From NCBI GenBank assembly GCA_963822945.1, contig CAWGJO010000020.1, positions 704,001-768,000 of the forward strand: a stretch of 64,000 nucleotides of DNA, read 5' to 3'. Every line of letters begins with the position of its first letter. Position 1 is the first letter of the stretch. Source of the stretch: an uncultured Gemmatimonadaceae bacterium. Its GTDB lineage: Bacteria > Gemmatimonadota > Gemmatimonadetes > Gemmatimonadales > Gemmatimonadaceae. The notes beneath the pieces were generated by a model that saw nothing but the letters and a program-made list of their open reading frames with translations, did no database searches and was not told the DNA's origin. Made by a program: the position numbers and the translations under genes. Shown here one piece after another: positions 12,184-41,240 of the stretch.

Positions 12184-13707
12184 ATGGTCTTCGGCATCAG
12201 CGTCGTCGCGGCAATCGTCGCACTTCTCGCCACGCGCTGGCTAGCGCGCATCGCGCCGAGTCAGCGCGAGCCGAGTGTCGTCCCGATCACGTATCGCCCC
12301 GGCTCCGCCCCCCCGGTTCCTCGGGTGGGCGGTGTCGCCGTCTTCGTGGCCGCGCTCGTAGCCCTGGGCATTGCGGCCGCAGTTGGCGTTCCGGGAACGG
12401 GGGCGATACTTCGGCAGCCCGGCCTGTACGGTGGGATATTCGGTGGCGTCTCGCTGTTGCTCGCGGTGGGGCTCGCGGACGATTTCCTCGACCTCTCTCC
12501 CGCCATCAAGCTGCTCGCGCAGGGTCTGGCGGCGATGTTCGCGATTTCGGGCGGCCTCACGCTGCCGTTCGTGCAACTCGGCCCCCACACGACGATCACG
12601 CTCGGATGGGTGGGCATCCCGGTCACGCTGTTCTGGATCATCGCCGTTACCAACGCGTTCAACTTCATCGACGGGCTCGACGGCCTCGCGACGAGCATCG
12701 GCGTCGTCGGGTTCGGCGCGACCCTCGTCTCGGCGGCGATCCTCGGGCACTCGGATATCGTCATTCTCACCGCGGTGCTCATCGGCGCATTGCTGGGGTT
12801 CCTGCGGTACAATTTCGCGCCGGCCCGGATCTACCTGGGTGATTGCGGCAGTCTCCTCATCGGTTATCTGCTCGCCACGCTGTCGGTGGTCGGGGCGACC
12901 TCGAGCGCGAATACCGTGCTCGTTTACGCGCCCCTGTTCACCCTCGCGCTACCGCTCCTCGACGGCACCGTGGCCATCGTCCGCCGCTGGCTGCGGCACA
13001 TGCCCGTCTGGAAGGGCGACCATCGCCATATTCACCACCGTGTGCAGGCGCTGGGGTTGAGCCGCCGGCAGACGGTGGGCGTGCTGGCCGGGACGGCAGT
13101 CATGTTTGCACTCGCCGGGTTGCTCACGTCCTTCGCGGCACCGAAGCTGTTCGAGACGACGGTTCTGCTCACGGTGCTGGTGACCGCCGGCGTCGCGGTG
13201 CTTGGACTCCGCCGGCTCGACTACTACGAATTCCGCGCCGTGCGCACGGCGTGGCGTCACCGGCCCAATTCCTGGCGGCGCTTCGTGCGCGAGGAGATCC
13301 GCATGCGGGACGCCGAACGCGAGTTGGCGACGGCGCGGGATCTGAACGAACTGCGCACCGGTCTCGATCGCTGCGCGCTGGCGTTCGGGCTCGATCGCAT
13401 CGAGATTTCACGACAACGTCCCCGACCTCGCCGGTCCTGGCGAGGGGAGCACCTCGATGTTCCGGCGGGCGTTTTCGATTCCAGTGGCACCGACCCGTGG
13501 ATCCTTCGCGTCTGGCATGGCGAGTATGATTCCCCGCGACCCGACCTCGTACAGCGCGTCGCCCACGTGCTGGCCGGCGCCTGCGGCCTCTGGTTGCGAG
13601 ACTATGGCCTCGCGGGCACGCCGGCGTGGACCGTGGCCGCCGCCCGCCATCCGTCGCACGAGGGGCCGACGCTCCCGCGGGGACGTCGCCAACTCGCCAA
13701 GGCATAA
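12184..13707 (+). CDS. WecA/MraY-family polyprenyl-phosphate N-acetylhexosamine-1-phosphate transferase with C-terminal soluble extension
   Basis: VPRVGGVAVF, GLADD, NAFNFIDGLDGL, GFLRYNFAPARIYLGDCGS, GDHRHIHHR; multiple TM helices. Confidence 0.9.
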   Translation: MVFGISVVAAIVALLATRWLARIAPSQREPSVVPITYRPGSAPPVPRVGGVAVFVAALVALGIAAAVGVPGTGAILRQPGLYGGIFGGVSLLLAVGLADDFLDLSPAIKLLAQGLAAMFAISGGLTLPFVQLGPHTTITLGWVGIPVTLFWIIAVTNAFNFIDGLDGLATSIGVVGFGATLVSAAILGHSDIVILTAVLIGALLGFLRYNFAPARIYLGDCGSLLIGYLLATLSVVGATSSANTVLVYAPLFTLALPLLDGTVAIVRRWLRHMPVWKGDHRHIHHRVQALGLSRRQTVGVLAGTAVMFALAGLLTSFAAPKLFETTVLLTVLVTAGVAVLGLRRLDYYEFRAVRTAWRHRPNSWRRFVREEIRMRDAERELATARDLNELRTGLDRCALAFGLDRIEISRQRPRPRRSWRGEHLDVPAGVFDSSGTDPWILRVWHGEYDSPRPDLVQRVAHVLAGACGLWLRDYGLAGTPAWTVAAARHPSHEGPTLPRGRRQLAKA

Positions 13708-13713
13708 TCCGCC

Positions 13714-14025
13714 ATGTCGCGGGAGCCGGACGTGATCCCGCTCACGCTCGCGTCGCGAGTCTCGGCGGCGCCCGACCTGATGGCCAGTGATCTGGCCGGC
13801 GAAATGGTGCTGCTGAATCTCGCCGACGGCGTATACTACGGTCTGGATGCGGTGGGGGCACACGTCTGGCGATTGCTCGACCAGCCCCGTACCGTGCGCG
13901 CAGTCGTGGACGACGTCGTCGCGCTGTATCACGTGGACCGGACTCGGTGCGAGAATGACGTACTCACATTTCTCGAGGACCTCAGCGCGCACGGTCTGGT
14001 GGTCGTCGCGGCCGACGAGCCGTGA
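13714..14025 (+). CDS. PqqD-family RiPP recognition element (lasso B1)
   Basis: SDLAGEMVLLNLADGVYYGLDAVGAHVWRLL..P.TV..Y.VD...C..DV..FL..L...GL. Confidence 0.92.
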   Translation: MSREPDVIPLTLASRVSAAPDLMASDLAGEMVLLNLADGVYYGLDAVGAHVWRLLDQPRTVRAVVDDVVALYHVDRTRCENDVLTFLEDLSAHGLVVVAADEP

Positions 14026-14052
14026 CGCGACCGCACTCGCGGTGAGTCCGCG

Positions 14053-15942
14053 GTGAGCGGATTCGTCGGACTCCTGGCCGGCGAGGGCGACGCCGTCGAT
14101 CCGCTCCTGCTGCACCGCCTCACCGACGGACTCTCGTACTTCGCGCCGGACGGCACCGCCGCGCGCACCAGCGGTCGCATCGGCCTCGGCTTTGCCGAGA
14201 GCCGGCACACGCCCGCGCACGCCGGCCAGCGTCCCCCACCGGTCTCGATGCCGGCCACCGACGACCGGGGCACGTGGGCCGTGGCCGATGCGAGCTTCAC
14301 CCAGCGCGACCGACTGGTGCGCGAACTCGGTGCCGTAGGACTCCGCCTCGACTCCGATGCCGGTGAGGCACAGCTCCTCCTCGCGGCTTATCGAGCCTGG
14401 GGAACGCGATGCGTCGAACACCTGCACGGCGACTTCGCCTTCGCCCTGTGGGACGACGTCCGCCACCGCCTCGTGCTCGGCCGCGATCGATTCGGCGTCG
14501 CACCGCTCTACTACGCGCACGCCGGCAGCACGCTCCTGTTCTCCAATTCGCTCGACCTCGTCCGCGCGCACCCGCTCGTCTCGTCCGCGTTGGACCCGGC
14601 CGCGATCGGGGACTTTCTCCGCATGGGCTCGAACACCGACCTCGCGACCACGGTCTTCAGCGCCGTCCGCTGCGTGCCGCCGGCCCACGTGCTCGTCGTC
14701 ACCGACGCCGCCACCCGGCTGACCCGCTACTGGGACCTGCCGACCGGTACCGCACTCGCCAACGCGCGCGTGGAGGAGTACGCCGAGCAGTTCTTCACCG
14801 TGCTTCAGGACGCCGTGGCCGATCGGCTTCTCGGACTCGACGATGCCGTGTTGTTCATGAGCGGCGGGCGTGACTCGACCGCCATCGCCGCCGCGGCGCG
14901 GTCGATCGTTCGCGGCCACCCCCCCGAACTGCACGCGGTGACGGCCGTATTCGACTATGCCCTGCCGGATCAGGAGCGGGAATACGCCGCCCTCGCCGCC
15001 GGTGCGCTGGACCTTCCGGTGGAGTTCGTGGCCCAGGATGAGTACCGGTGGTTCGAGGAGTGGGAGCGCGACGACCTCTGGCGTCCGGAACCGGTCGAGG
15101 CCCCGCTCCTGGCAGCCGAAACCGATTTCACCGCGCTCGCCGCGACCCGCGCCCGGGTGGCGCTCACGGGAGAAGGTGGCGACGCGGTGCTTCGCGAGCG
15201 GGAGTCGCATCTCGCGCGTCTGCTCATGGCGGGACGGTGGATCCGGGCCGGCATGGAGTCGCTGACGTACGTGCGCTGGCACCGTCGATTCCCACGGCCA
15301 GGATTCCGGCGGTTGCGCGCCCGCCGGCTGGGACTGGCATCGGTGCACCCCCCCGTTCCGCCCTGGTTGCGCCGGGACCTGATCGCGAGCGCCGGCCTGC
15401 AAGAGCGGTGGGCTGCTCTCGAATTCGAGGAGCGTCGCATCCCCGAGCCCGGCGCGTTGCGACCGGAGGCCTACACCAGACTCCGCTCCGGATTCTGGCC
15501 GCGGGGGTTCGAGGCGGAGCATCCGGCAGCCACCGGAATTCCACTGACCACGCGCCACCCCTATTTCGACGAGCGCGTGGTGGAATTCCTGCTCTCGCTG
15601 CCACCGGTGCAATGGGCCAACGACAAGGGAATTCTCGTGGCCGCGATGCGTGGCCGCCTGCCCGATCGTGTGCGGCTCCGGGGAAAGACACCGCTCGTCG
15701 GCGACGGCTACGAGATCGCGTTTGCTGCCGCCGGTCATGTGCGGCCGACACGTGAGGATTTTTGTGAGGAAGCCCTCGAGTACATCGATCCGGACGCACT
15801 TTTCGATCGGACGGCGGAGATGGACGCGTCCGATTCGTGGGATTGGACTCGGGCCTACAGCCTCTCGCTCTGGCTGTCGCGACGGACCGCGGGACGCGGG
15901 CTTCAACGCGCCGTCGCCGCGGCCCAACCCGATGCCCCGTGA
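14053..15942 (+). CDS. Asparagine-synthetase-like lasso peptide cyclase (C protein)
   Basis: Starts (M)SGFVG, lacking the catalytic Cys of AsnB; LHGDFAFALWD, RDRFGVAPLYY, SGGRDS PP-loop, LTGEGGD, RHPYFDERVVEF; between the RRE and the precursor. Confidence 0.88.
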   Translation: MSGFVGLLAGEGDAVDPLLLHRLTDGLSYFAPDGTAARTSGRIGLGFAESRHTPAHAGQRPPPVSMPATDDRGTWAVADASFTQRDRLVRELGAVGLRLDSDAGEAQLLLAAYRAWGTRCVEHLHGDFAFALWDDVRHRLVLGRDRFGVAPLYYAHAGSTLLFSNSLDLVRAHPLVSSALDPAAIGDFLRMGSNTDLATTVFSAVRCVPPAHVLVVTDAATRLTRYWDLPTGTALANARVEEYAEQFFTVLQDAVADRLLGLDDAVLFMSGGRDSTAIAAAARSIVRGHPPELHAVTAVFDYALPDQEREYAALAAGALDLPVEFVAQDEYRWFEEWERDDLWRPEPVEAPLLAAETDFTALAATRARVALTGEGGDAVLRERESHLARLLMAGRWIRAGMESLTYVRWHRRFPRPGFRRLRARRLGLASVHPPVPPWLRRDLIASAGLQERWAALEFEERRIPEPGALRPEAYTRLRSGFWPRGFEAEHPAATGIPLTTRHPYFDERVVEFLLSLPPVQWANDKGILVAAMRGRLPDRVRLRGKTPLVGDGYEIAFAAAGHVRPTREDFCEEALEYIDPDALFDRTAEMDASDSWDWTRAYSLSLWLSRRTAGRGLQRAVAAAQPDAP

Positions 15943-15983
15943 CCAGGAGCGCGGCATGTGACACCCGTCATGGCACGTATAGG

Positions 15984-16072: not shown

Positions 16073-16279
16073 ATGAAACCGAGTACTGACGATTCGATCA
16101 AACACGCGAATGCGACACAGGCGTCATCACCCGTCGGTCGTCATTCCGTGAGCCCGGACGCCGACACCTATGTGCCGCCGCGTCTGCTCGTCTACGGGGT
16201 GGTCCGCGACCTCACGGCCTCGGGAGGCCGCGTGGGCAAGCACGACAAGGCGGTCAAGCACTCGCGGACCGGCTTCTAG
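16073..16279 (+). CDS. Lasso peptide precursor; predicted core SGGRVGKHDKAVKHSRTGF (16220-16276)
   Basis: Leader YVPPRLLVYGVVRDLTA matches YxxPxL...GxxxxxT(-2); core starts with Ser and has Asp at position 9; alternative in-frame ATG at 16061. Confidence 0.85.
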   Translation: MKPSTDDSIKHANATQASSPVGRHSVSPDADTYVPPRLLVYGVVRDLTASGGRVGKHDKAVKHSRTGF

Positions 16280-16364: not shown

Positions 16365-17348
16365 ATGGCGTCCTTCCATTCCCGCGCGTTCGGACTGCGC
16401 ATCGAATCCGATGCCCGCATTGCGGGCCTGCCGGCCGCGGCCGATGAAGCGCCGGCTGAGCTCCGGATTCACATGGGATCGTTGCCCGATACCTTCGATC
16501 CGGCCGACCCCGCAATTCGAGAAGTCTGGCATTCGGAGCCGAACGCCGGCGACGACGCGGATGCCGTCGCGCTGTTCGCCACGGACGACGGCGAGTGGCT
16601 GGTCCTGCTGTATGCCGACGGCACGCGTTTCGTGCTCGGGCACGCGGGCACCGAGATCTGGGCGACCTGGCCCGCCACGAGCTCCGAGGCGTCGACGGCG
16701 ACCTACCTGCTCGGGCCCGTCATCGGATTCGTACTCCGGCTGCGCGGACTCACCTGCTTCCACGCCAGCAGTGTCGTCATCGCCGGCCGGGCGATTCTCA
16801 TGCTCGGACCCGCCGGCATCGGCAAGTCGTCGATAGCGGCCGCGCTCGCACTGCGCGGGCATCGCGTGATCGGCGACGACATCGCCGTCGTGCGCCGGCA
16901 GAACGATCAGTGGGTCGTTGCCGCGGCGGTTCCCGGTGTGCGGCTGTGGGACGACATGGTGGAAACACTGCTCGGGCGGGCGGATGCTCTCCCGCTCCTG
17001 ACGCCCGGATGGGAGAAGCGCCAGCTGGACCTTCGCGATGCGCCGGCCGGGTTTGCGTCCGACGCCGCGGTTCCCCTCGGGGCCATCTACGCCCTCTCCA
17101 CGTCCGGCCCGGACGCGGAGCGCCTGCGCGGCCGGGAGGCGCTCCTCGCGCTGGTCGCGAACACGTACGCGAACGTACTGCTGACGCCGCAGATGCGTCG
17201 TGCGGAGTTCGCCGAACTCTCGTCGCTCGTTCAACGGGTGCCGGTGTGGCGGGTCGGCGTTCCCGACAGGTCGCAGGGGCTCGACGCATTCTGTGCATGC
17301 ATCGAGGCCGCGGGCGAGTCCTCGGACTACGGTCCCGGACTGCCATGA
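16365..17348 (+). CDS. HPr-kinase-like P-loop kinase (lasso peptide kinase type)
   Basis: YLLGPVIG, FHASSV, Walker A GPAGIGKS, IGDD, PLGAIYAL. Confidence 0.85.
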   Translation: MASFHSRAFGLRIESDARIAGLPAAADEAPAELRIHMGSLPDTFDPADPAIREVWHSEPNAGDDADAVALFATDDGEWLVLLYADGTRFVLGHAGTEIWATWPATSSEASTATYLLGPVIGFVLRLRGLTCFHASSVVIAGRAILMLGPAGIGKSSIAAALALRGHRVIGDDIAVVRRQNDQWVVAAAVPGVRLWDDMVETLLGRADALPLLTPGWEKRQLDLRDAPAGFASDAAVPLGAIYALSTSGPDAERLRGREALLALVANTYANVLLTPQMRRAEFAELSSLVQRVPVWRVGVPDRSQGLDAFCACIEAAGESSDYGPGLP

Positions 17349-17385: not shown

Positions 17386-18609
17386 GTGAGCACCGCGCTC
17401 GTCGAGCCTGCCGGCAGGGTGGTGAACCTCTCCGCCACCCACCGCCTGCTTTGCGCGTGCGCGCGTCGCGCCGACGATGCGGACTTCCCACTTCTTGTGG
17501 CGGAAGACTCCTGGGAGTCGGTCGACTGGGGATCGTTCCCGGCGCTCCTCATCCGCCACGGCCTGCAGGCTCTGGCCGGCGCCCATCTGGCCGGCGCGCG
17601 TGACCGCATGCCCGAGTCGGTGTGGCGGGACATTCACGCCAGCGCGATGGCGGCCCGTGCGGAGGCGCTCGCTCTTGCATCCGAGCTGTTCAGAATCCTG
17701 GACTGCCTGGCCGCAGCCGGGGTGGACACGTTGCCTTACAAGGGGCCCCTGCTGGGATGGGAGGCATACGGCGACCTCGGCGCACGGCCATCGGTCGATC
17801 TCGATCTCCTGATATGTCCCGCCGACCTCGAGACCGCGACCGCTGCACTCCACGAGCTCGGCTACCAGCCCGAATATCACTTCTCACCCGCCGAGGAGCG
17901 CTGGTTTCGCCGAGTCGACGGTGACTACCCGTTCGATCACGGCGTCACCGGCCGTCTCGTCGAGCTTCACGTCCGCGCCCTGTCGCGACGGTTCGGGCCC
18001 GGGCCAACGACGCCGGAACTCCTTGCGCGCCGTCGCGTCCTGCCGGTGTCGGGTCTGCCCGTCGCCGTGCCCGACGTGGATGATCTCTTCTACCTGCAGG
18101 TCGTGCACGGCGCCAAGCACCGATGGGAGCGGCTGGAGTGGGTGGCCGCCACCGCCGGACTTCTGCGGCTCCGCGACGGCGACGTATCCGCGCTCCATGG
18201 CAGCCGTTACCCAAACGCGCGCGCCGTGTTGCTCGGATGCCGGCTGGCCCGTGATCTCCTGGGCGCGCCGGTCGACGCCGAAACCCTGGCGCGAATGGGC
18301 AACGACCCTATGATCGAACGACTCGCGGGCGACGCCGTCCGGCGCCTGTTCGACGATGCCCGAACGGCCGACGATGGGCCCGACACCACGGCCGCCAAGC
18401 TGTGGTTCAACTTCCGGCTGCAGCGCGGGGTGGTAGCACGAATCCGGTTCCTGTATCGCTGGGTCTTCTGGCCGTCTCCGGAAGACTGGGAGCGATTCCG
18501 GCTGCCGGACCCCATGTTCTTCGCGTACCGCCTGACACGCCCCCTCCGACTGTTCTGGCGATACGCGCGGCGGATTCCCCGTCACGAGACCCGGACGCGC
18601 CATGTCTGA
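17386..18609 (+). CDS. Nucleotidyltransferase family protein (NTP_transf_5-like)
   Basis: YKGPLLG..AYGD.GARPSVDLDLLI, VELH, VHGAKHRWERLEW; GTG start uncertain. Confidence 0.85.
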   Translation: MSTALVEPAGRVVNLSATHRLLCACARRADDADFPLLVAEDSWESVDWGSFPALLIRHGLQALAGAHLAGARDRMPESVWRDIHASAMAARAEALALASELFRILDCLAAAGVDTLPYKGPLLGWEAYGDLGARPSVDLDLLICPADLETATAALHELGYQPEYHFSPAEERWFRRVDGDYPFDHGVTGRLVELHVRALSRRFGPGPTTPELLARRRVLPVSGLPVAVPDVDDLFYLQVVHGAKHRWERLEWVAATAGLLRLRDGDVSALHGSRYPNARAVLLGCRLARDLLGAPVDAETLARMGNDPMIERLAGDAVRRLFDDARTADDGPDTTAAKLWFNFRLQRGVVARIRFLYRWVFWPSPEDWERFRLPDPMFFAYRLTRPLRLFWRYARRIPRHETRTRHV

Positions 18610-20341
18610 ACGACTCATGCACGACCTCCGGACGCTGGGACGACGGCTGGTGCGCGTACAGGGCGCGCGCACGGCCGGGGTTCTGGCGCTCACCGTCGTC
18701 AACATGGCGGCGCAGGGCGCCACGGTCGCGTTGCTCGTCCCCTTGCTGCGGGTCGCGGGCGTGCCCACGGGAGGCGGCGTCGTGGGCGCGATCGACCGCG
18801 GCATCCAATCGGCCTTCCACCTCGTGGGGCTCACGCCCACGCTGCCCGCGGTCCTGGTGCTCTTCATCGCGATGGCGTGGGCCCAGGCGATGCTCGAGCA
18901 CCTGGAACTGGTCCAGACCACGCGTCTGGAGCAGGCGCTCGTGCGGGAGTTGCGGGAGACGTTGTATCGTCAGCTGTTGGCCGCGCGCTGGCAGTTCTTC
19001 ACCGACCGCCGCGGTTCCGATCTCACCCACGCCGTCACGCGGGATGCCGACCGGGCAGGAGCGGCCGTCGGCTTCCTCTTCCGAGCGGTGGCGCAGTTCG
19101 CGAGCGTGATCATCTACGGTGTGCTCGCGATCGCCATCTCGCCGGCGGCCTCGGGCGTCGCGCTCGCGGGCGGTCTCCTGCTCGCGCTGCTGCTCCGGCC
19201 CGCCTTGCGGAGCGCGCATGCCACCGGCGAGGCCTTGAGTTCGATCTCCGCCGACGCACTGGCGCTGGTCACGCAGCACGTGGACGCGATCAAGCTCGTG
19301 AAGAGCTATGGCGCCGAGTCGCGCACGCTCGCCGCGTTTCAGGCGGTGGCCGCGCAGTCGGCGGGTTCGGCGGTGGACGCCACGCGCGCCCATGCCCGCG
19401 CGCACGTCGCCACGATCGCGGGCTCGGCCACGCTGTTGGGCGCCATTCTGTTCGTGGCGATCGAGACGTTGCACCTCGATGCCGCGACGACGCTGGTGCT
19501 CGCCTTTCTGTTCTGGCGTCTGGTGCCACGGCTGATGGACGTACAGCAGAGCTTGCGGTACGCGGTGCACGAACTTCCGGGATTCCAGGTCGTGCGAAGG
19601 CTGCTCGAGGCATCGGCGGATGCCCGCGAGGTCGGGGCATCCGAACCCACGGCCGCGCCGATGACGGTCCATACCGGAATCGCGTTCGAGAGCGTGTCGT
19701 TCGCGTACGACACCGTGCCCGTGCTGCACCAGGTGTCGTGCGTCATTCCGGCCGGACGCATCACGGCCTTCGCCGGTCCATCCGGTTCAGGAAAGACGAC
19801 GCTCGTCGATCTGGTGTTGGGCCTGGTCACGCCCAGCGCCGGCACCATCCGCATCGACGGCGCGCCATTGACGGCCGAGCAACTCCCGGCGTGGCGTGCC
19901 GCGGTGGCGTACGTCCCGCAGGAATCGCTGCTCTTTCACGACACGATTCTCGCCAACTTGCAGTGGGCCAATCCGCGCGCTGCGGCCTCGGACGTCTGGG
20001 AAGCCCTGCGTGGGGCGGCGGCCGATGACTTCGTTCGCCGGCTGCCGGCCGGGCTCGATACGGTGGTCGGTGATCGCGGCGTGCGTCTCTCGGGGGGAGA
20101 ACGCCAGCGGCTGGCGCTCGCGCGCGCCCTCCTGCGGCGGCCGGCGCTCCTCGTGCTGGACGAGGCGACGAGCGCCGTCGACGCGGAGAGCGAGGGGCGC
20201 ATTCTCGACGCGATCGAGGTGCTTCGCGGATCGATCACGACCATTCTGGTGAGCCACCGTGCGGCCCCGTTGCGGCGGGCCGAGATCGTCTACCAGCTCA
20301 GCGACGGGACGATCGCGCCTCAGCTCTCCGCCGCGGAGTAG
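18602..20341 (+). CDS. ABC exporter, fused permease/ATPase
   Basis: N-terminal TM domain; GPSGSGKT, YVPQE, LSGGERQR, LVLDEATSAVD, VSHR. Confidence 0.95.
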   Translation: MSERLMHDLRTLGRRLVRVQGARTAGVLALTVVNMAAQGATVALLVPLLRVAGVPTGGGVVGAIDRGIQSAFHLVGLTPTLPAVLVLFIAMAWAQAMLEHLELVQTTRLEQALVRELRETLYRQLLAARWQFFTDRRGSDLTHAVTRDADRAGAAVGFLFRAVAQFASVIIYGVLAIAISPAASGVALAGGLLLALLLRPALRSAHATGEALSSISADALALVTQHVDAIKLVKSYGAESRTLAAFQAVAAQSAGSAVDATRAHARAHVATIAGSATLLGAILFVAIETLHLDAATTLVLAFLFWRLVPRLMDVQQSLRYAVHELPGFQVVRRLLEASADAREVGASEPTAAPMTVHTGIAFESVSFAYDTVPVLHQVSCVIPAGRITAFAGPSGSGKTTLVDLVLGLVTPSAGTIRIDGAPLTAEQLPAWRAAVAYVPQESLLFHDTILANLQWANPRAAASDVWEALRGAAADDFVRRLPAGLDTVVGDRGVRLSGGERQRLALARALLRRPALLVLDEATSAVDAESEGRILDAIEVLRGSITTILVSHRAAPLRRAEIVYQLSDGTIAPQLSAAE

Positions 20342-25058: not shown

Positions 25059-25834
25059 CGGGGCCGGCAGACGAACCACGCCTGGCTGGCGAACTGGGGG
25101 CCGAGCCAACTCAGCGGCGAAAATCTGGTATCGATCACGCGAAAGGTTTCGCTCACCCGCTTGCGCATGGCCCGCCAATTGAAGCCTTTGTGTCCGTGAT
25201 ACCGATTCGGGATTCCGCTCTCGAACTCGGTCTCGTATACCGGTCGCTCGACCACGACCCGGTCACCCGGCGCGAGCATGCGGACGAATTCCCGCGTTCG
25301 ATACGTCTCCCGATGTCGATAGTCGCTCGATACACGCCGCGCGGCCACCGCCCGTGCGGCTTGCTTCACGACCAAGGGAAGGCCGGTCTCCACCGGAACG
25401 CTGATGATCACGCGTCCATCGTCCGCGACGAGCCGGCGCATGCGCGCCAGCGCGACATCCACGGCATCGGGCGGGCAGTGCTCCAGCACCTCGGTGCACA
25501 GCACGACGCCGAAGTTCCCCGGCGGAAGGGCGTCGCTCTCCTGGGCGAGCATGAACCGCAGGTCCCCCAGTTGCCCGAACCGTTCCGTGCAGACGCGCAC
25601 GAGCCCCGGGTCCACCTCCAGTCCCACCGATCCGGGAAACCGCTCGTGCGCCAGGGCGAGAAACGTCCCGTCGCCGCACCCGTAATCCACCAGCGGCCGT
25701 CCGCTGCCGGGCGCCACGAGGCTGAGCGCCGTCTCGAATCGACGACGGTGGCTCCACGACAGGATCGAGCACCCGCCGAACAGCTGCTTTCGGGCGTAGG
25801 TCCCTGCCGCGAGTTGTTGATCGTCGGAACGCAT
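25055..25834 (-). CDS. Class I SAM-dependent methyltransferase
   Basis: VDYGCGDG, CTEVLEH. Confidence 0.88.
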   Translation of the reverse strand: MRSDDQQLAAGTYARKQLFGGCSILSWSHRRRFETALSLVAPGSGRPLVDYGCGDGTFLALAHERFPGSVGLEVDPGLVRVCTERFGQLGDLRFMLAQESDALPPGNFGVVLCTEVLEHCPPDAVDVALARMRRLVADDGRVIISVPVETGLPLVVKQAARAVAARRVSSDYRHRETYRTREFVRMLAPGDRVVVERPVYETEFESGIPNRYHGHKGFNWRAMRKRVSETFRVIDTRFSPLSWLGPQFASQAWFVCRPR

Positions 25835-31400: not shown

Positions 31401-31403
31401 CGT

Positions 31404-33262: not shown

Positions 33263-34395
33263 GCGGCGCTCTCCATGAGGTTCACGATCCGCGCCGCCAT
33301 GTCGTCCCAACTCCACGCGCGCAGTTCAGCCGACGTCCGCCGCGCCGCACGGGCCCACCGATCGCGGTCGTCATGCCAGCGACGGAGCGCGGCCGCCAGC
33401 GCGGCGGGGTCCTCGCGGTGTTCGGGCTGCAGGCCCTCGAGCCCCGCCAACCGCTCCGCCACGCCAGCGTCGGGATCCGTGATCGCCGCCAGCCCGCAGC
33501 AGACAGCCTCGTGCACCGCCAGCCCGTACGCTTCGTACCGCGCCGGCGCGGCAATGGCATCGCAGGCCCAGAGTACGCGACGCACGTCGCGCGTGAATCC
33601 GAGAAAGTGGATCCGGTCCGCCAGTCCGGCGGCCTCCGCGGCGCGACGCCACACGGGCAGCTCGCTCCCGGCGCCGGCGATCACCAGGCGGGCGTCCCAC
33701 GCGCGATCCTCGCACAGTGCGCGCCACGCGGCGAACAGGACGTCGAAGCCTTTCCGGCGATCCCCGAGCGCGCCCACGAAGGCGACGCCCGGCCGCTCGT
33801 CCCGCCACCCCAGGGCCTTCCGTGCGTCCTCCCGTTCCTCGTCGGAGGGCGGCCGATGATAACCGGCATCGGCACCGTAGTACACCGTGTGCACGCGCTC
33901 CGGCGGTACGCCTGCGCGGGCGACCAACTCCTGTCCCGTAGCGTTCGAGTTGGCGATCACGACGCGGGCCGCGTGCAGCGCCCGTCGTTCCTCGACGACG
34001 TATTGCCGGTGCTTCCACTGCGCCAGCATCCGACGGCCGGCCGACGTGGCGACTTCCGGACGATGGCCGGCGTGCACGTAGTGTACCCAGTTGGTGTCCG
34101 CGCTTACGCAATTGCCGCCGTTCACGATCGTGTGGCCGCCGCGCGCCGCCATCATCCGCCCCCATCGCCGGCCGGCACGGGCCAGCGCTCGAGCGCCGAG
34201 CAGGTAGGAGTCGAGCGGCTTCGCCACCCGGTGCCAGTGCACCCCAGGCATGGTGAGCAGTTTCTCGTCCACGCGGTGCGCCACCAGATGCACCTCGTGC
34301 CCCACGCCGGCCAGGTATCGCGCCAGATGAAGATTGGCCACATCCATGCCGCCCGTTCGGACGAGGTCGCCCGTCACGATCGCGAACGGCCTCAC
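33259..34395 (-). CDS. Glycosyltransferase family 4
   Basis: TGGMDVAN, DRRKGFD, YEAYGLAVHEA; GTGA overlap at 34392-34395. Confidence 0.9.
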   Translation of the reverse strand: MRPFAIVTGDLVRTGGMDVANLHLARYLAGVGHEVHLVAHRVDEKLLTMPGVHWHRVAKPLDSYLLGARALARAGRRWGRMMAARGGHTIVNGGNCVSADTNWVHYVHAGHRPEVATSAGRRMLAQWKHRQYVVEERRALHAARVVIANSNATGQELVARAGVPPERVHTVYYGADAGYHRPPSDEEREDARKALGWRDERPGVAFVGALGDRRKGFDVLFAAWRALCEDRAWDARLVIAGAGSELPVWRRAAEAAGLADRIHFLGFTRDVRRVLWACDAIAAPARYEAYGLAVHEAVCCGLAAITDPDAGVAERLAGLEGLQPEHREDPAALAAALRRWHDDRDRWARAARRTSAELRAWSWDDMAARIVNLMESAA

Positions 34396-35777
34396 GTGCT
34401 CGCCGATTCCGGCCACGTCTCGTGCCACGCCTGGTTCCGTGCTGCCGCAAACAAGGTTGCGTTCAGCAGCCAGAACTCCATGCCCGTCTGCGACAGGAAC
34501 ACCGGATACGAAAACGTGAACGCGCACGTCCCGAGCGAGTATCCGAGAATGACCGTGGCCCAGAGCGACAGGCTCGGATCCGTCGATGATCGCCATCGCG
34601 CGATCCCGAGCGTCGTCAAGAGCGTGATGCCCACGATCCACACGTAGGCAATCATCAGCGGCGCTCCACCATCCAGGATCCAGCCGCTCCACTGAATTTC
34701 CGCCCACAGAGCTTCGTCCGGGTTCGACTTGTCGCCGAAATAGGATTGCATCATCCCCCAACGCCCGATCCCGGCCCCGAGGGGATATTCGGGCAGCATC
34801 TCTTCGAACGCCTGCTTGAGAAATCCCCCGCGATTCTGTTCGTAGATCTGTTGCGGGGTGGCGGCCGTGAGGCTCCGCACCCGGTGCTCCACGCTCTGAC
34901 TTGCCATCGACACCGCGCCGCGGAAGCTCACGACGAGAACCGCAATCAGCACGACGCTGAATCCGGTGAGACGCTTGTAGTCGCGGCGCAGTGCCAGTAC
35001 CGCCGTCACGCCGACGAGGCTGATGGCCGTGACCACCATCAACGCACGGATCTGCGACAGATACAGGCACATCAGACCCAGCAGCACACTGCCGATGGCG
35101 CTGGCCGACAGCCACCGGCGCTCCGTCGTCAGGTACACGCCGATCCCCAGCACCACGGCATAGAGGCCGGAGGTCGCGGCGCCACCCGGCACGTCGGTGA
35201 GCCCCATGGGGCGAAACACCCGCACGCCACCCGTCGTGACGATCTTGAGGCTCTCCGCATATCCCCGCCCCAGCCCCAGGATCACCGGCGAAACGTTCGG
35301 CTGGAAGTGACCCGGGAAATACACCTGCAGCACGCCCACCAGCGAACCGACGGTGTGGAACACCCACATGATCATCAGCAGCGTGCGCAGCGTCTTCGTC
35401 GTCACCCGCAGTCGCGGCACCCAGAACAGAGGGGCCAGAATGGCGACGTACAGGCCGAGCTGCGCCAGGGCCGCCGGCAGAATCGCCGCCGTCGGATTGA
35501 GGACCGACAGGCCGAGTATGACGATCACGACCAACGCCATCGTGCGCGCCGGGTGGAATCCCGCCTTCCCCTGCACGAGCACGAAGAACACGAGACTGCT
35601 CCCGAACGCGGCCATGCGGATCAGCGTGCGCGCGCCGCCCAGCGGACTGATGATCGCGAGCTGGGACACGACTTCAATGATCATGAACCAGCGGATCCAG
35701 AAGTCCGCCGCGCGCTCTTCCAGCACGTACGGGTTCGCCACCACCCCGTCGGCGGCCCCCGGCGCCAGGGTGGTCAC
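34392..35777 (-). CDS. Wzy polymerase / O-antigen-ligase-like integral membrane protein
   Basis: Many TM helices, YLSQIR, large periplasmic loop, PLGAGIG, WILDGG; position in the GT operon; GTGA overlap at 35774-35777. Confidence 0.75.
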   Translation of the reverse strand: MTTLAPGAADGVVANPYVLEERAADFWIRWFMIIEVVSQLAIISPLGGARTLIRMAAFGSSLVFFVLVQGKAGFHPARTMALVVIVILGLSVLNPTAAILPAALAQLGLYVAILAPLFWVPRLRVTTKTLRTLLMIMWVFHTVGSLVGVLQVYFPGHFQPNVSPVILGLGRGYAESLKIVTTGGVRVFRPMGLTDVPGGAATSGLYAVVLGIGVYLTTERRWLSASAIGSVLLGLMCLYLSQIRALMVVTAISLVGVTAVLALRRDYKRLTGFSVVLIAVLVVSFRGAVSMASQSVEHRVRSLTAATPQQIYEQNRGGFLKQAFEEMLPEYPLGAGIGRWGMMQSYFGDKSNPDEALWAEIQWSGWILDGGAPLMIAYVWIVGITLLTTLGIARWRSSTDPSLSLWATVILGYSLGTCAFTFSYPVFLSQTGMEFWLLNATLFAAARNQAWHETWPESAST

Positions 35778-36454
35778 GCGCCCGACTCCGGCTTGCGCGC
35801 CACGATGGCGACGTTGTCCGAGCAACCGCGCGGCGCCAGGCGGCCGAAGGCGCGCGGGTAATGCCCCCCGGTGAACGGCACCCGTCCCCGTCCGCTGTAC
35901 CGCACCTCCGCGTCCACCAGTCCGGCCTCGGCCATGATCCGCCGCAGATCGACCTCGAGTAGCGCCGTACGGTGCGCCGGATACGACGGAGCCTGGAACG
36001 CGTTGAACGCGTTCTTCAGGACCAACGTCGTCTTGCTCAACACGCTCAGCTGATTGGGCGTCGTCACCAGCACCCAGCCGCCCGGCGCGGCCAGGCGCGC
36101 CAATTCGCGCCCGAACGCCCAGGGGTTCTCGAGGTGTTCGATCGTCTCCACGGCAGCCACGACGTTCGCACAGCCATCGGGCAACGGAATGTTCGGGCGA
36201 TCCAGATCGTGCATCACGAATTCAACGGACGCGTCGAGCCCCTCGTAGCGCACCGTATCGATGCCGAGGCAGCGCGCGAATCGCGGTTGCAGCCGGCGGC
36301 ACAGCGCGCCGGTTCCGCATCCCACGTCTGCGAGCACGCCGCCCCCGCGGTGCCGCTCGTCCACCAACGCGCCGACGAGCGCGTAGATCGCCTCCCCACT
36401 CGTGCCGCGCGACTGCCGCGCGCGTGACTCGAGATCGGGCAGCGGCGCCGTCAT
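35774..36454 (-). CDS. Class I SAM-dependent methyltransferase
   Basis: DVGCGTG, ETIEHLENP, PGGWVLVTTPN; ATGA overlap at 36451-36454. Confidence 0.9.
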   Translation of the reverse strand: MTAPLPDLESRARQSRGTSGEAIYALVGALVDERHRGGGVLADVGCGTGALCRRLQPRFARCLGIDTVRYEGLDASVEFVMHDLDRPNIPLPDGCANVVAAVETIEHLENPWAFGRELARLAAPGGWVLVTTPNQLSVLSKTTLVLKNAFNAFQAPSYPAHRTALLEVDLRRIMAEAGLVDAEVRYSGRGRVPFTGGHYPRAFGRLAPRGCSDNVAIVARKPESGA

Positions 36455-37572
36455 CGCTCCGTCCGCTCGGCGATCAATGGCGACAGCACATCGTGCAGCT
36501 GGCGCAGACGCGCGCCGGGGTCGCACAGCGCACGTGCTCGCGCCGGCCCCGCCATCCCCATCTCCTGGCGGCGCGCCGGGTTCTCGATCAGCGAGCGGAG
36601 CGCGTTCGCGAATTCGTCGGGCCGCCGCGGCGGCACCAGAACGCCGCACCCGTGCCCCTTGATGATCTCGGTCGGGCCGCCCATGTCGGTGGCCACGACC
36701 GGCAGCCCGGCGTACAACGCTTCGATGATCGCCACGCCGAACGGCTCGGCCTGGGCATTGGGCTGACAGAAGATGTCGGCACCGGCGAGAACGCTTCCGA
36801 TGTCGTCGCGCTCTCCGAGAAAGCGCACCCGCGTGCGAACGCCGCGGGAGACGACCAGCGTCTTGAGCTGCGCCTCGTACGTCTTCTCCGATGCCCGCTG
36901 CGCGCCTCCCACGATCCAGCACTCCCAACCCGGCAGATCGCCGAGGAAGCCGAGCGCATGCAGGAGCAGCGCATGACCCTTCCACCGCTCCAGCCGGCCT
37001 ACCTGCACGATCACGGCGGTCTCCGGCGGCACGCCGAATTCCCGTCGAACCGCCTCACGCGTGGCGCCGGCCGTCGGAGGAGAGACCGGACAGTGCAGCA
37101 GCTCCGCACGCGCCCGCGGGAAGACACTGCGGACCGTCATGCCGGTGAACTCACTGTTGTAGATGACGATGTCCGGCGTCCGGAGGCGCGCCCAGCGCTC
37201 CGTCCAGTGCGTCCCCCGAACGGCGTCGTGGAGCCAGAATCCGACGGGATAGCCCGCCCGCCGTGCCGTGGCGGCGAACAGGGAGTACGACCACGCGGAA
37301 TGGCACATCACGAAGTCCGGCCTGTGCTCCTTGAGCAGGGCCCGCAATGCACGGCGCGCGCGAATTACCGTCTGTGGCCGGCTCGCGCGGACGCCCCCCA
37401 GGAGGTACACCGGTGTTCCACTTGCCCGGAGTTCGCGGGCCAGCCGCGCGTCGAAGCACAGCGCGAATTCCGGCTCCAGTTTCGCGAACGTCGCCCGCTC
37501 CCGCGCCAGCACCACCAGCGTCGACTCCACGCCGCCGTAGAGGTTCCCGCTGTACACGTGGAGAAGCTTCAT
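36451..37572 (-). CDS. Glycosyltransferase family 4
   Basis: YGGVE, GRLERWKGH, EPFGVAIIEAL. Confidence 0.92.
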   Translation of the reverse strand: MKLLHVYSGNLYGGVESTLVVLARERATFAKLEPEFALCFDARLARELRASGTPVYLLGGVRASRPQTVIRARRALRALLKEHRPDFVMCHSAWSYSLFAATARRAGYPVGFWLHDAVRGTHWTERWARLRTPDIVIYNSEFTGMTVRSVFPRARAELLHCPVSPPTAGATREAVRREFGVPPETAVIVQVGRLERWKGHALLLHALGFLGDLPGWECWIVGGAQRASEKTYEAQLKTLVVSRGVRTRVRFLGERDDIGSVLAGADIFCQPNAQAEPFGVAIIEALYAGLPVVATDMGGPTEIIKGHGCGVLVPPRRPDEFANALRSLIENPARRQEMGMAGPARARALCDPGARLRQLHDVLSPLIAERTER

Positions 37573-38804
37573 GCCATCGCCCGCGTTCCGGTGCCGCCTG
37601 CCGTCATGGACCGGTACACCGCGGCCACCTCCTCACCAACGCGCCGGCGATCGAAGCGGCGTTCCGCGCTCCGCCGCCCCGCGGCGCCAAGCCGGCTTCG
37701 CAGCTCGGGGTGCTCGGCCAACCGGCGCATGGCCGCCGCCAGCCCCGCGATGTCACCGGGTTCGTGTACCAGCGCATCCTCCCCATCCTGCACGATTTCG
37801 CCGGCGCCACCCGCAGCGCTCGTGATCACGGCGCGTCCACATGCCATCCCTTCGGCCACCACCAGCCCGAACGGTTCCGGCACTACCGTGGCATGCACGA
37901 CGACGTCCAGCGCGCGCATGGCGGCCGCCGGGTCCTCCACGAACCCCGTGAACCCGACGTCCGCGCCGACGCCGACGTCCATCGCCAGCGCGCGCAGCCG
38001 TTCCATGGAGATTTCGCTCCCTGGCGTTTCGTAGAGCGCGCCGCCGACCACATAAGCGCGCATCGGCAATTCACGCGGCAGCCGCGCGACCGCCTGCAGA
38101 AAGACGTCGTGTCCTTTGAAACGACCCATCGTCGCCACCAGGCCTACCCGCACCGTGCCGGCCGGTGCAGCCGGCATGCCGGCCAGCGCGTCCAGATCGG
38201 CACGCGGACCCGTGGGACTGAAGACGTCCAGATCCACACCGTTGAGCACCACCTGTACCGCGGTTCGCCCCCGCCACCCGGGCGCGGTGTCCCGGGCCAC
38301 GCTGTGCGATACGGCGATGGCCGCGTCGCACCGGCGGGAGAGTTGTCTGATCACGTGTGCCATCAAGGGGCGGGAGGAGACGTAGTCGTGCAGATGCCAG
38401 ACGAGCGCGGCGCCGGAGGGTCGGCTCCAGGCTCCCATAATGTGCATCTTGAATCCGTTGGTGTGGACGATGTCGGGCGCTCGACGTTTCAGTGCGTCCC
38501 GCAATCGGCGGCGGTACGTCGCGAATCCGCCCAACGCCGCCGCCGCTCGCACGCCGAGCCGCAGCAAATGGCCCGGCCGATCCTGCGCCGCGGAATCACC
38601 CAGCCGCGCCACGGATTCCGGCATCGCCACCACCTCCACGGCGATGCCTAGGGCGCGCGCGCGGTCTACGAGCGGACCGGGGCGCGACGAGAGAAGGGTG
38701 AGTTCCCAGGTGGGCTCCAGGCGATGCACGCTCTGCATGACGTCCAGCAGGCACCGCTCCGCACCACCGAGTTGGCCGCTTCCACTGAGATAGACGATCC
38801 GCAC
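37569..38804 (-). CDS. Glycosyltransferase family 4, first gene of the polysaccharide operon
   Basis: (M)RIVYLSGSGQLGGAE, FKGH, PEPFGLVVAEGMACG; GTG start at 38804 inferred. Confidence 0.9.
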   Translation of the reverse strand: MRIVYLSGSGQLGGAERCLLDVMQSVHRLEPTWELTLLSSRPGPLVDRARALGIAVEVVAMPESVARLGDSAAQDRPGHLLRLGVRAAAALGGFATYRRRLRDALKRRAPDIVHTNGFKMHIMGAWSRPSGAALVWHLHDYVSSRPLMAHVIRQLSRRCDAAIAVSHSVARDTAPGWRGRTAVQVVLNGVDLDVFSPTGPRADLDALAGMPAAPAGTVRVGLVATMGRFKGHDVFLQAVARLPRELPMRAYVVGGALYETPGSEISMERLRALAMDVGVGADVGFTGFVEDPAAAMRALDVVVHATVVPEPFGLVVAEGMACGRAVITSAAGGAGEIVQDGEDALVHEPGDIAGLAAAMRRLAEHPELRSRLGAAGRRSAERRFDRRRVGEEVAAVYRSMTAGGTGTRAMA

Positions 38805-39025: not shown

Positions 39026-39964
39026 ATGGCCCACATAACCGTGTTCAAACCAACTCTGCATTCGCGCTGCCGCCCCTGGTTGGCGTTAGCCCTCGCGGCC
39101 TTCCTCGGTGCGCCGGCGGTCGTCCGGGCCCAACGGCCCGTACTCCAGCGGCCCCCGTCAGGACGACTGGACTCGCTCCGCAAACTGTACCGCGTGGCGC
39201 CCGCTCCCGTTCAGCCGATCGTCGTCGCCACCTTCCTCAGCGCGCCGGGCAGCAGCCTCGGGTCGCCCTCTCCGTCAGGCGTCGGCAGCGGCGACTACTT
39301 CGCCGGCGCCGGCTACCAGGAGCGCACCCGATTCACCTCACGAGCCGATGGCGGCGTCGGGGTGGGCACGGGCTTCGGCGATCCTGCTGCAGGAGTCGCG
39401 CTCGAAGTGGCCGTCTCCTCGTATTCGTCCATCCGCCATTCCTTCGCGTCGATCGGCGGCCTCAGCTTCAAACTCCACCACCGCGATGCGCAGCGCATGC
39501 TGCTGTACGCCCTCGGCGTCGAGAACGCGATTCCGTGGGGGCTCACCGACGGTGGCACCAGCGTCTATGCCACCGCAGGTCGCGTCTTCGTACTGCGTCC
39601 CGATGAGAACGCCCCGTTCGGCGTGCTCACGACATCGCTGGGCCTCGGCACGGGCCGCTTCCGCACCCAGAATGCCGTCCTCACGCACCGGCACACCGTC
39701 GGCATCTTCGGGGGCGCCGGACTGCGGATCGTTCGCGCGCTCGCCATTGCAGCCGACTGGACGGGGCAGGACCTCGATGCCGGACTCACGCTGACCCCGT
39801 TTCGCAATCGCGGGATCGTGGCGTCGTTCGGCTACGCCGACCTGACGCGCACGGCGGGAAATGGCCCGCGTTTCATCATGAGCGTGGGCTATGGCTTCAA
39901 TGCACACCGCGACAATCGACGCCTCTCTCCGGAGGATCTCAATGCTGTCTTCAAGACGCCGTAG
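39026..39964 (+). CDS. Secreted, probable outer-membrane beta-barrel protein of unknown function
   Basis: Signal peptide ending VRAQ; Gly/aromatic-rich alternating strands; last strand FIMSVGYGF. Confidence 0.65.
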   Translation: MAHITVFKPTLHSRCRPWLALALAAFLGAPAVVRAQRPVLQRPPSGRLDSLRKLYRVAPAPVQPIVVATFLSAPGSSLGSPSPSGVGSGDYFAGAGYQERTRFTSRADGGVGVGTGFGDPAAGVALEVAVSSYSSIRHSFASIGGLSFKLHHRDAQRMLLYALGVENAIPWGLTDGGTSVYATAGRVFVLRPDENAPFGVLTTSLGLGTGRFRTQNAVLTHRHTVGIFGGAGLRIVRALAIAADWTGQDLDAGLTLTPFRNRGIVASFGYADLTRTAGNGPRFIMSVGYGFNAHRDNRRLSPEDLNAVFKTP

Positions 39965-40571
39965 CTGGATGCGGGCCGTGCTCGGTGCCGGTGCGATGCT
40001 CCCCATCGCCCTGGCCACGGCCAGCGCCCAGGTCGGCAATCAATCGGACGTGAGCGGTATCCCCATCACGAGCAGCAGTGTCGTGAGCCCGGTATTCGGC
40101 GTCTCGCTTGGCGGCGCCGTCCGCGTGAATACCTTCATCACGCCGCAGGTGGCCGCGTCGTACCAGCAGTCCGCAGCCCGCGTGAACGCCGAGTTGAGCA
40201 GTCAATCCTTCACCGACAGCAGCGGCGTCCGCACGGGCCCCGTCACGCAGAACCTCATCTACGAAGTCGCCTCGGGTGGCAGGTCGAGTGCGCAGGCGGC
40301 CACACAGTTGGTCGGCATCCTCACCCGGAACAACAACGCGCCGGCTACCGTGGCAGACGCCGAGGCGTTCGTGGAATCGTTCCGCAGCCTGCTCGCCAAG
40401 GGAATCGCCATGGACCCGCGGTTCTTCAATTCCCTGACGGCCACGCAGTTGGCGAATGCCGTCGCTGCCTACAATGCGTTCGTCGATTCGAGCACGGAGC
40501 AGTTCCTGTCGTCACCGCCGCCCGAGCTCATCACCATCCGCGGCGTGCTCTCGCAGTTGACGGCCCGGTAG
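39942..40571 (+). CDS. Secreted hypothetical protein, helical C-terminus
   Basis: GGAGG at 39931-39935; signal ending ASAQ; overlaps the upstream gene end. Confidence 0.7.
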   Translation: MLSSRRRSWMRAVLGAGAMLPIALATASAQVGNQSDVSGIPITSSSVVSPVFGVSLGGAVRVNTFITPQVAASYQQSAARVNAELSSQSFTDSSGVRTGPVTQNLIYEVASGGRSSAQAATQLVGILTRNNNAPATVADAEAFVESFRSLLAKGIAMDPRFFNSLTATQLANAVAAYNAFVDSSTEQFLSSPPPELITIRGVLSQLTAR

Positions 40572-40592
40572 TCGCGCCCCGACGCGCCCCGG

Positions 40593-41240
40593 CTACGGGT
40601 GCGTCCGGACCAGCGCGACGATGAGGCCCACCGTCTGGAGTGCGGTCAGCGCATTCTGCCAGGTGAACCAGGTGAACTGCCTGGCCGGCACGACGATGCG
40701 ATCACCGGACTCGAGCAGAATCCCGAGCGTTGGCGCGCCCGTCGCGATGGCCTGCGCCGCGTTCAGTATCACCACATGGTCTCGTCGCAGAAGTCGGATG
40801 TGCGACAGGTCCGCGTTGTTCGTCGGACCGCCGGCCTGGCTGAGCGCATCGAACACCGACTGCGTGGCGTCCACGGGGTAGAGACCCGGTCGTGCGACCT
40901 GGCCCAGAACACTGACCCGGAACTGGAGCGACACGATCGCCACGCCATTCGTCGTGAGCGCCCGATAGTGATCGCGCACCTCCGTTCGGACCTCGCTCAG
41001 TGCCTTGCCCGACACGTTCAGCTCACCGAGCAGCGGGATCGCGACGACTCCCGATGTCTCCACCTGGTAGTCACCCGAGTACTGCTGTTCTGGCCAGAAC
41101 TTGATGCGCAGGAGATCGCCCGGCTGTACGATGACATCGGTCACCGCGTGCGGTTCCGGAGCGGGATTCTGGGCTCGTGCCGCCGATGCGATCATGGCGA
41201 GGCCCACGAACATGGCGAGCAACCGAGACGATCGAGACAT
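40593..41240 (-). CDS. Short polysaccharide export (Wza/OPX-like) protein: Poly_export plus one SLBB domain
   Basis: QPGDLLRI, G.Y.V...G...IPLLG, VSVLGQVARPGLY, ALSQAGG, LESGDRIVVP; 215 aa. Confidence 0.88.
   Translation of the reverse strand: MSRSSRLLAMFVGLAMIASAARAQNPAPEPHAVTDVIVQPGDLLRIKFWPEQQYSGDYQVETSGVVAIPLLGELNVSGKALSEVRTEVRDHYRALTTNGVAIVSLQFRVSVLGQVARPGLYPVDATQSVFDALSQAGGPTNNADLSHIRLLRRDHVVILNAAQAIATGAPTLGILLESGDRIVVPARQFTWFTWQNALTALQTVGLIVALVRTHP

Follow-up and report, generated by a model that had tools for sequence, protein, structure and literature searches.

A lasso peptide cassette between wecA and wzc of a Gemmatimonadota polysaccharide locus is probably a separable, co-expressed module

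In a 64,000-nucleotide stretch of DNA from an uncultured Gemmatimonadaceae bacterium (assembly GCA_963822945.1, contig CAWGJO010000020.1, positions 704,001 to 768,000; the whole stretch is hereafter termed the window), a set of forward-strand lasso peptide genes converges on a reverse-strand exopolysaccharide operon. Comparison with homologous loci leads us to regard the lasso genes as a cassette of the paeninodin/pseudomycoidin type that was inserted between wecA and wzc, such that peptide and polysaccharide genes would form separable modules that are likely co-expressed and that probably do not constitute a single chemical pathway. An earlier note on this DNA had proposed that the two operons complete each other, the forward-strand genes supplying the initiating transferase and the flippase that the polysaccharide operon lacks; of this proposal, the first half stands, in that the WecA-like enzyme would indeed complete the operon (as a polysaccharide gene), and the second half, which cast the ATP-binding cassette (ABC) exporter as the missing flippase, finds no support. 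What is new here is the occurrence in a Gemmatimonadota polysaccharide locus of a kinase/nucleotidyltransferase lasso cassette that has no B2 leader peptidase gene and whose predicted core does not end in serine. The source organism (genome G000) is a metagenome-assembled genome, 88% complete.

The locus was mapped with a codon-usage gene caller and with Pfam/NCBIfam scans of the window, and consists of the following features (GT, glycosyltransferase):

12184..13707, + strand: WecA-type initiating phosphoglycosyl transferase with a C-terminal extension, putatively a polysaccharide gene (PF00953, 128 bits; TIGR02380 is the best model)
13714..14025, + strand: RRE of the lasso B1/PqqD type, leader-binding (PF05402, 73 bits; NF033536, 77.2 bits against a cut-off of 80)
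14053..15942, + strand: lasso cyclase, a macrolactam synthetase (best model NF033535, 255 bits, cut-off 525)
16073..16279, + strand: lasso precursor, start uncertain (16073 or 16148), with a leader of the form YxxPxL...G...T
16365..17348, + strand: HprK-like lasso-tailoring kinase (PF07475)
17419..18609, + strand: NTP_transf_5 nucleotidyltransferase of the PsmN family (PF14907, 138 bits), whose start perhaps lies slightly further upstream
18602..20341, + strand: ABC half-transporter, placed by a tree in a lasso-cassette (PadeD/PsmD-like) clade
20320..22737, - strand: Wzc co-polymerase/tyrosine kinase (NF008568 is the best model; TIGR01007 is above cut-off)
22775..34416, - strand: eleven open reading frames, in ascending coordinates GT4, GT4, methyltransferase, GT4, GT2, GT4, GT4, GT4, GT2, methyltransferase, GT4
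34392..35777, - strand: Wzy_C/WaaL-fold GT-C membrane protein (PF04932, 28.7 bits, E 1e-6, below cut-off)
35774..38804, - strand: methyltransferase and two GT4 genes at the operon head (Pfam/NCBIfam, gene calling and homologous operons)
39080..40571, + strand: X1 and X2, conserved genes that travel with wza (no Pfam/NCBIfam match)
40593..41213, - strand: short Wza-type (outer-membrane polysaccharide export, OPX) protein of 206 residues (PF02563 and SLBB; EpsE/EpsY models below cut-off)

This inventory, its positions and the 6 nt that separate the wecA stop from the RRE start agree with what the earlier note had described. At the other end of the cassette the ABC and wzc genes converge, their stops overlapping by 22 nt, and the reverse-strand operon runs from 38804 to 20320 through 16 genes (wzc, nine GT4, two GT2, three methyltransferases and the Wzy_C-like gene). 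The Pfam/NCBIfam scans and a hydropathy scan revealed no Wzx flippase in this operon; since WecA, the ABC protein and Wzy_C are the sole multi-helix membrane proteins of the locus, neither a Wzx nor a second initiating transferase lies hidden there, as had been claimed. The position of the RRE gene 6 nt behind wecA makes it likely that the peptide is made together with the polysaccharide. A scan of positions 11700-20500 yielded no promoter and two terminator-like sites (3.0 expected by chance), and a metatranscriptome that held 8% of the sampled words (as contigs, many from related organisms) gave 81 pieces, none of the eight listed spanning the 13707/13714 junction.

That either module can exist on its own is indicated by related genomes. 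Among 250 genomes of the family (two unpublished ones, G007 and G034, are counted within the tallies, and we make no individual claim on either), the Wzy_C ortholog occurs in six, and in five of these a lasso cyclase lies about 20 kb away. The sixth, G143 (99% complete), keeps the operon with a Wzx and a WecA of its own and carries no lasso gene in 60 kb; NTP_transf_5 has no match above cut-off anywhere in G143, and the sole lasso locus of this genome is of the YcaO/TfuA type and lies on a separate contig. In G331 and G471 (family f8), wecA heads the operon and the cassette resides on another contig. The converse case emerges from a survey of 20 regions fetched at the best cyclase matches outside the source genus, one per genome, of which 17 hold a cyclase with a kinase: polysaccharide markers accompany just one of these family cassettes (that of G003) and are missing from the other 16 within the 13-20 kb fetched, some regions ending at contig edges. 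G143, G331, G471 and the 16 marker-free cassettes show the modules to be separable, and the proposal that the two operons form one obligate pathway does not survive them, G143 being a case of the kind that the earlier note had itself named as a refutation. Together the relatives form a series of natural deletions: the Wzx, ABC, B2 and methyltransferase genes are each present in some and missing from others, and each module occurs alone. This series rules out obligate mutual completion, and would assign WecA to the polysaccharide and the ABC exporter to the peptide.

The arrangement is nonetheless kept in relatives, and is therefore more than a chance juxtaposition: it recurs in 6 of 80 cyclase loci (L013-L018, as far as each reaches), in G002, G128, G167 and G198, and partly in G020, which has an intact-looking operon as well as a cassette.

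The case for a displaced wecA rests on homologous operons. The operons of G143, G003, G331 and G471 each contain a WecA homolog of about the window protein's length (36-42% identity): the G143 operon ends in wza-wzc-epimerase-wecA; G003 has the order wza-wzc-wecA-GT4-GT4 followed by Wzx, with its cassette divergently transcribed; and in G003, G331 and G471 the methyltransferase/two-GT4 genes that stand at the operon head in the window directly follow wecA. An epimerase gene likewise precedes wecA in L017, L018, G002, G020, G128 and G167. Of 80 Wzy loci retrieved from metagenomes we used the 32 of at least 11 kb, and found wecA in seven, five times at the operon head; no lasso kinase, RRE, nucleotidyltransferase or ABC gene turned up in the 32, but the loci flank wzy by 10 kb and such genes, which lie more than 14 kb from wzy in the window layout, would fall outside this reach, so that this negative was given no weight. 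A WecA tree had long branches and poorly supported deep nodes, and was left unused. Because wecA stands first or last in homologous operons, whether or not these come with lasso genes, we assign the window gene to the polysaccharide; judged from these sequences, it almost certainly encodes the initiating enzyme for the reverse-strand operon, and wecA would be a displaced polysaccharide gene with the cassette inserted behind it.

The cassette itself is maintained, with motifs intact and under purifying selection. Its predicted core, SGGRVGKHDKAVKHSRTGF, has 19 residues with Asp9 as acceptor and is preceded by a YxxPxL leader with a penultimate Thr; Asp9 is kept in all 12 precursors listed (the window, L013-L018, L093, L103, L106, L108 and L109, of which L014 and L108 are identical). 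The cyclase scores 255 bits on NF033535 as against 152 on the model for an exopolysaccharide amidotransferase, retains its SGGRDS and GEGGD motifs, has Ser and not Cys at residue 2, and finds its nearest relatives in Gemmatimonadaceae (57-95% identity). Comparison of the window genes with G198 and G167 yields ratios of non-synonymous to synonymous substitution (dN/dS) of 0.12-0.15 for the cyclase, 0.05 and 0.36 for the conserved part of the precursor and 0.05-0.36 across all lasso genes; the polysaccharide genes tested fall at 0.06-0.22.

One element of a canonical cassette is missing. The B2 leader peptidase (PF13471) has no match in the window, and in the source genome scores above cut-off only on contigs C1 and C35. 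As the cassettes of G020 and G003 have B2 genes and those of all five cassette-bearing genomes of the source genus do not, the gene was lost in that genus. This loss admits a very improbable alternative, namely that no lasso is made, the precursor staying a linear phosphopeptide (LPP-like) or the cassette decaying stepwise through loss of B2, methyltransferase and epimerase. In keeping with such a course, a protein arginine methyltransferase (PRMT)-like gene that is present in L017, L018 and G020 has been lost in G000, and the second lasso locus of G000 has no cyclase. The intact motifs and purifying selection of the cyclase speak for a closed ring, however, as do the conserved Asp9 and penultimate leader Thr; moreover, two B2 genes lie elsewhere in the genome, and lasso formation independent of B proteins has been published, B1 and B2 being dispensable and a B-less cyanobacterial cluster being known (PMC6993621).

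Of the two B2 genes, one is an orphan (L008:9563-9940, contig C35) that lies beside queC and a radical-SAM gene, has its Cys and His intact and is shared by G167, G198 and G228 as a clade of its own; G228 has no cassette. The other belongs to a second lasso-like cassette (L007:9156-14285, contig C1) with an RRE, B2, a Ser-ending precursor, a kinase-like gene, an ABC-2 pair and NTP_transf_5. Having B2 and no cyclase, it is the mirror image of the window cassette; cassettes of this type are complete in G002, hold a cyclase fragment in G167 and have no cyclase in G198. The two cassettes of the source genome could complement each other, or the L007 cassette may make a linear phosphopeptide.

The PRMT-like gene (PF22528 or PrmA matches) is itself a recurrent member of the lasso clade, found at 18 of the 74 distant loci and in 13 of the 17 family cassettes (L017:13359-14558, L018:11836-13029, L093:15759-16922 and others), beside cores rich in Lys and Arg. 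A literature search on arginine methyltransferases with lasso peptides found nothing relevant, subscription journals being mostly outside its coverage.

Both tailoring enzymes keep their motifs. The kinase has His133, the Walker-A Lys154 and Asp171-Asp172, and so the His-Lys-Asp-Asp motif that PMC9266682 gives for lasso kinases; the nucleotidyltransferase, a putative member of the PsmN family by its NTP_transf_5 domain, has an intact DxD motif. The core has no C-terminal Ser and ends in RTGF. In a set of 96 distinct related cores, a terminal Ser occurs in 25, a Ser or Thr within the last four residues in 86 and a [KR][ST] pair within the last six in 54; the frequency of Ser/Thr near the C-terminus and of this pair leads us to infer Ser15 or the conserved Thr17 as phospho-acceptor. 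The locus also flags a lasso sub-family without a C-terminal Ser, often accompanied by an arginine-methyltransferase-like enzyme.

We next consider the exporter, for which the earlier note had called for a tree against glycan and peptide exporters. In a quick tree of 55 exporters (seven loci dropped as duplicates or irrelevant; no PglK sequence included), the window protein falls outside the HepA clade and within a clade of 16 rows made up exclusively of lasso-cassette ABC proteins (SH-aLRT 100), among them the ABC of a Paracoccus plasmid and the annotated paeninodin-cluster exporter of Priestia, which is also its best plasmid match by E-value. Eleven of the 17 family cassettes carry the gene, ten of them without polysaccharide markers and mostly between housekeeping genes. 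From this distribution the ABC protein appears to be part of the lasso cassette. It is a fused type IV exporter, as are PglK and HepA, but its scores remain below cut-off on both models (HepA, 272 bits against 725; PglK, 177 bits against 1000), and another ABC of the source genome surpasses it on the latter (200.7 versus 177 bits); for the membrane domain, PglK (36-38 bits) ranks below MsbA (62 bits). Its predicted structure superposes on PglK 6hrc (Z 27.9, rmsd (root-mean-square deviation) 3.7, 546 residues aligned) in a near-tie with MsbA and many other exporters, and a whole-protein PDB search, a single-sequence membrane-domain search and two fold searches did not separate PglK, MsbA and peptide exporters; McjD is absent from the 60 matches listed in the membrane-domain search, which does not exclude it.

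The missing Wzx can be placed by the same comparisons. A Wzx gene occupies the homologous position in L190, G003, G143, G331 and G471, and in 12 of the 32 metagenome loci; in L190, a close Gemmatimonadaceae relative with the same gene order (63-79% identity), it encodes 510 residues, and in G331 and G471 the homolog (30% identity to the Wzx of G003) has no Pfam match of its own. An ancestral Wzx gene would accordingly have stood directly downstream of the GT2 gene at 31404-32315, and appears to have been deleted in the window as well as in G002, G128, G167, G198 and L187. Every combination of the two genes is found: Wzx with ABC in G003 and L190, ABC alone in G000, G128, G167 and G198, Wzx alone in G143, and neither in G020 (100% complete), where the best match to the ABC protein scores 26 bits. 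For L190, the Wzx (HUX33205.1), ABC (HUX33192.1) and Wzy (HUX33209.1) proteins were assigned to one contig of 38,640 bases by accession series and equal size. The existence of all four combinations, with both genes in L190, marks the missing Wzx as a local deletion, and G020 indicates that an operon lacking both can be maintained; together with the ten polysaccharide-free cassettes that carry the ABC gene, these genomes speak against its casting as the missing flippase. Elsewhere in the source genome, other polysaccharide loci hold two PF01943 Wzx genes, the gene for a transferase of the WcaJ type and a further wecA-like gene; these, like the lack of B2, do not figure in the earlier note.

The reading of two modules that are probably not one pathway has several observations weighing against it, the first set of which concerns the exporter. 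Of the NCBIfam models, HepA fits the window protein best, and it matches the membrane domain in all 17 members aligned; the lasso-exporter clade adjoins HepA in the tree, and in the AlphaFold model (mean confidence, pLDDT, 89.7) residues 60-74 form an external helix between transmembrane helices 1 and 2 (TM1 and TM2), a feature of PglK; descent from glycan exporters is suggested, which would fit a glycosylated cargo. In addition, a search of five genomes of the group, run without a positive control, brought up no ortholog of the lost Wzx. A second set concerns adjacency. With home-made profiles we counted polysaccharide markers within about 10 kb of 44 distant cyclase loci, each 15 kb or longer, and found them at 15 loci by loose and 9 by strict scoring, as compared with 108 and 77 (about 5%) of 1598 overlapping windows of the source genome; the 44 are not independent of each other, one genome serves as background and the profiles favour high-GC sequence. 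Kinase/nucleotidyltransferase lasso cassettes thus do lie beside polysaccharide genes above background, as the earlier note's synteny check had envisaged, and this enrichment, across phyla and in several layouts, is not what pure hitch-hiking predicts. In a sample of 400 genomes of the phylum, a lasso kinase is present in all six with the operon's first GT4 and in 17 of the 394 others, the six representing two lineages only; and in Longimicrobium the cassette adjoins wza-X1-X2 even without a nearby glycosyltransferase operon. Lastly, the core has no C-terminal Ser, which PadeK-type lasso kinases need according to PMC9266682, and LppK acts on an internal Ser and not on Thr (PMC13381572).

One way to accommodate the exporter evidence is a late takeover, in which the modules are chemically independent and the HepA-like ABC protein, in this sub-lineage only, took over repeat-unit flipping once Wzx was deleted. 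We judge this improbable. It would explain why G000, G128, G167 and G198 kept the ABC gene among the genomes that lost Wzx, why the lost Wzx did not turn up elsewhere in the five genomes and why the model has its external helix; against it stand the intact-looking operon of G020, with neither gene, the fragmented ABC gene of G002 (possibly an assembly error), the presence of other Wzx genes in all five genomes tested with PF13440 and in G000, and the exporter's better membrane-domain match to MsbA than to PglK, with fold searches that do not tell them apart.

The adjacency evidence bears on a different alternative, a true hybrid in which the nucleotidyltransferase links the phosphopeptide to a sugar or to the repeat unit of the locus; glycosyltransferases nearby or the WaaL-fold enzyme would carry out extension or ligation, and the resulting glycopeptide of the surface or matrix would anchor, cap or cross-link the polysaccharide. 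This we hold to be unlikely, although the recurrence of the pairing in differing layouts across phyla is what it would lead one to expect. Ramlibacter has the layout ABC-wecA-epimerase-UDP-sugar dehydrogenase, Anaerolineae wzc-RRE and Longimicrobium wza-X1-X2-RRE; three Acidobacteriota loci have a converging wecA, and on a plasmid of Paracoccus the ABC and wzc genes meet in a converging junction, with the cassette among sugar genes. Also in favour are the HepA-like lineage of the exporter, the ligase-type fold of Wzy_C and a report (PMC13381572) that LppN is inactive in a heterologous host and the native products went undetected, for which its authors suspect partners beyond the core cluster. 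On the other side, operon and cassette are each found alone, and PsmK with PsmN yields a phospho-hexosyl lasso peptide in Escherichia coli without cluster glycosyltransferases (PMC6993621). The Wzy_C model itself aligns with a WaaL-like fold (Z 19.5, rmsd 4.6, 343 residues) that is common to polymerases, ligases and protein O-transferases, so that ligation to an acceptor would formally be compatible with it; the family is nevertheless widespread, with 968 homologs and atlas clusters in Cyanobacteriota, Myxococcota and Acidobacteriota, and beside Wzc and Wza the protein is best read as a polymerase. A profile built from its alignment returned no match among PDB sequences.

Returning to the reading that we favour, of two co-expressed modules, the predicted chemistry follows from homology with known enzymes. 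The RRE would bind the leader, the kinase would phosphorylate the tail at Ser15 or Thr17, and the leader would be removed by a peptidase encoded elsewhere, which we propose because B2 is missing from the cassette. The cyclase would then close a nine-residue ring between Ser1 and Asp9; a sugar would be placed on the phosphate by the nucleotidyltransferase, in the manner of PsmN, and the product would be exported through the ABC protein. Separately, WecA would prime the lipid carrier, the 11 glycosyltransferases and three methyltransferases would build the repeat, a flippase encoded elsewhere would move it, Wzy_C would polymerise it, and Wzc and Wza would export the polymer. The peptide is likely to be made whenever the polysaccharide is, pointing to a role in matrix or envelope and not as an antibiotic.

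A more far-reaching possibility, advanced here tentatively and with more doubt than conviction, is that kinase/nucleotidyltransferase lasso peptides are components of the surface matrix: phospho-glycosylated with a sugar that the adjacent locus makes, flipped or exported by an ABC protein of HepA-type glycan-exporter descent and released through Wza and the X1 barrel, they would anchor or cross-link the exopolysaccharide. If true, they would be hybrids of a peptide made on the ribosome and modified after translation (RiPP) with a glycan, and the recurrence of such cassettes in polysaccharide loci across phyla would be explained.

The closest described relative of the cassette is that of pseudomycoidin (psmCAKB1B2ND of Bacillus pseudomycoides, PMC6993621), with which it has in common the cyclase, precursor, HprK kinase, RRE, NTP transferase and ABC genes, the Asp9 ring and the predicted phospho-glycosyl tailoring, and for which no antibacterial activity was found (PMC6993621). 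The window cassette differs in having no B2 gene, in a basic core of 19 residues that ends in RTGF and not in Ser, and in its insertion behind wecA in a Gram-negative Wzc/Wzy/Wza locus. The pairing with polysaccharide genes has already been published for Bacilli, and the window extends it to Gemmatimonadota: PMC13381572 describes paeninodin-like and LPP clusters that lie inside loci for capsular polysaccharide, with an RRE, HprK kinase, NTP transferase and MsbA-like transporter as in the window, and lasso genes that are co-upregulated with an eps gene in Paenibacillus; it calls the role of phosphorylated lasso peptides unknown and a link to biofilms untested. Relative to the loci described there, the window belongs to another phylum, has no SipW-like peptidase, has a cyclase and holds modules that comparison shows to be separable. 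The polysaccharide side shares WecA, the glycosyltransferase series, Wzy_C, Wzc and Wza with Wzx/Wzy-dependent exopolysaccharide systems, but Wzx is deleted, wecA stands in a separate converging unit and none of the named Eps/Hps models is matched above cut-off. Literature searches, with subscription journals mostly outside coverage, found no report on a lasso peptide with Wzc and a polysaccharide gene cluster, and on lasso peptides with Gemmatimonad returned surveys only; the supplements of PMC13381572 and PMC6993621 may list Gram-negative cases.

The Paracoccus plasmid comes from a cultured strain (Paracoccus sp. MC1862, NZ_CP067230.1, 42 kb); at L140:426-20680 its cassette, with the ABC/wzc junction converging as in the window, is interleaved with sugar transferase, O-antigen-ligase-family, glycosyltransferase and wzc-like genes. 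In Acidobacteriota (L066:59-9596, L072:101-9619 and L076:16-9582), RRE-cyclase-precursor-kinase genes follow very large open reading frames, which in L066 are SdrD-repeat surface proteins. On the separate contig of G143 (L176:7913-12143, contig C23), YcaO and TfuA genes stand directly upstream of genes for an RRE, a B2 peptidase and a lasso cyclase, which may make this a thioamide-lasso hybrid cluster. X1 resembles an outer-membrane barrel, with a weak atlas lead to a cluster in which 32% of members occur with YjbH, and has a paralog at C21:101174; in the Longimicrobium loci X1 and X2 lie directly upstream of the RRE. Further upstream in the window, at 8095-8991, a replication-initiator-A-like gene (PF10134, 72 bits) lies in a chromosomal setting directly upstream of an S41 peptidase gene.

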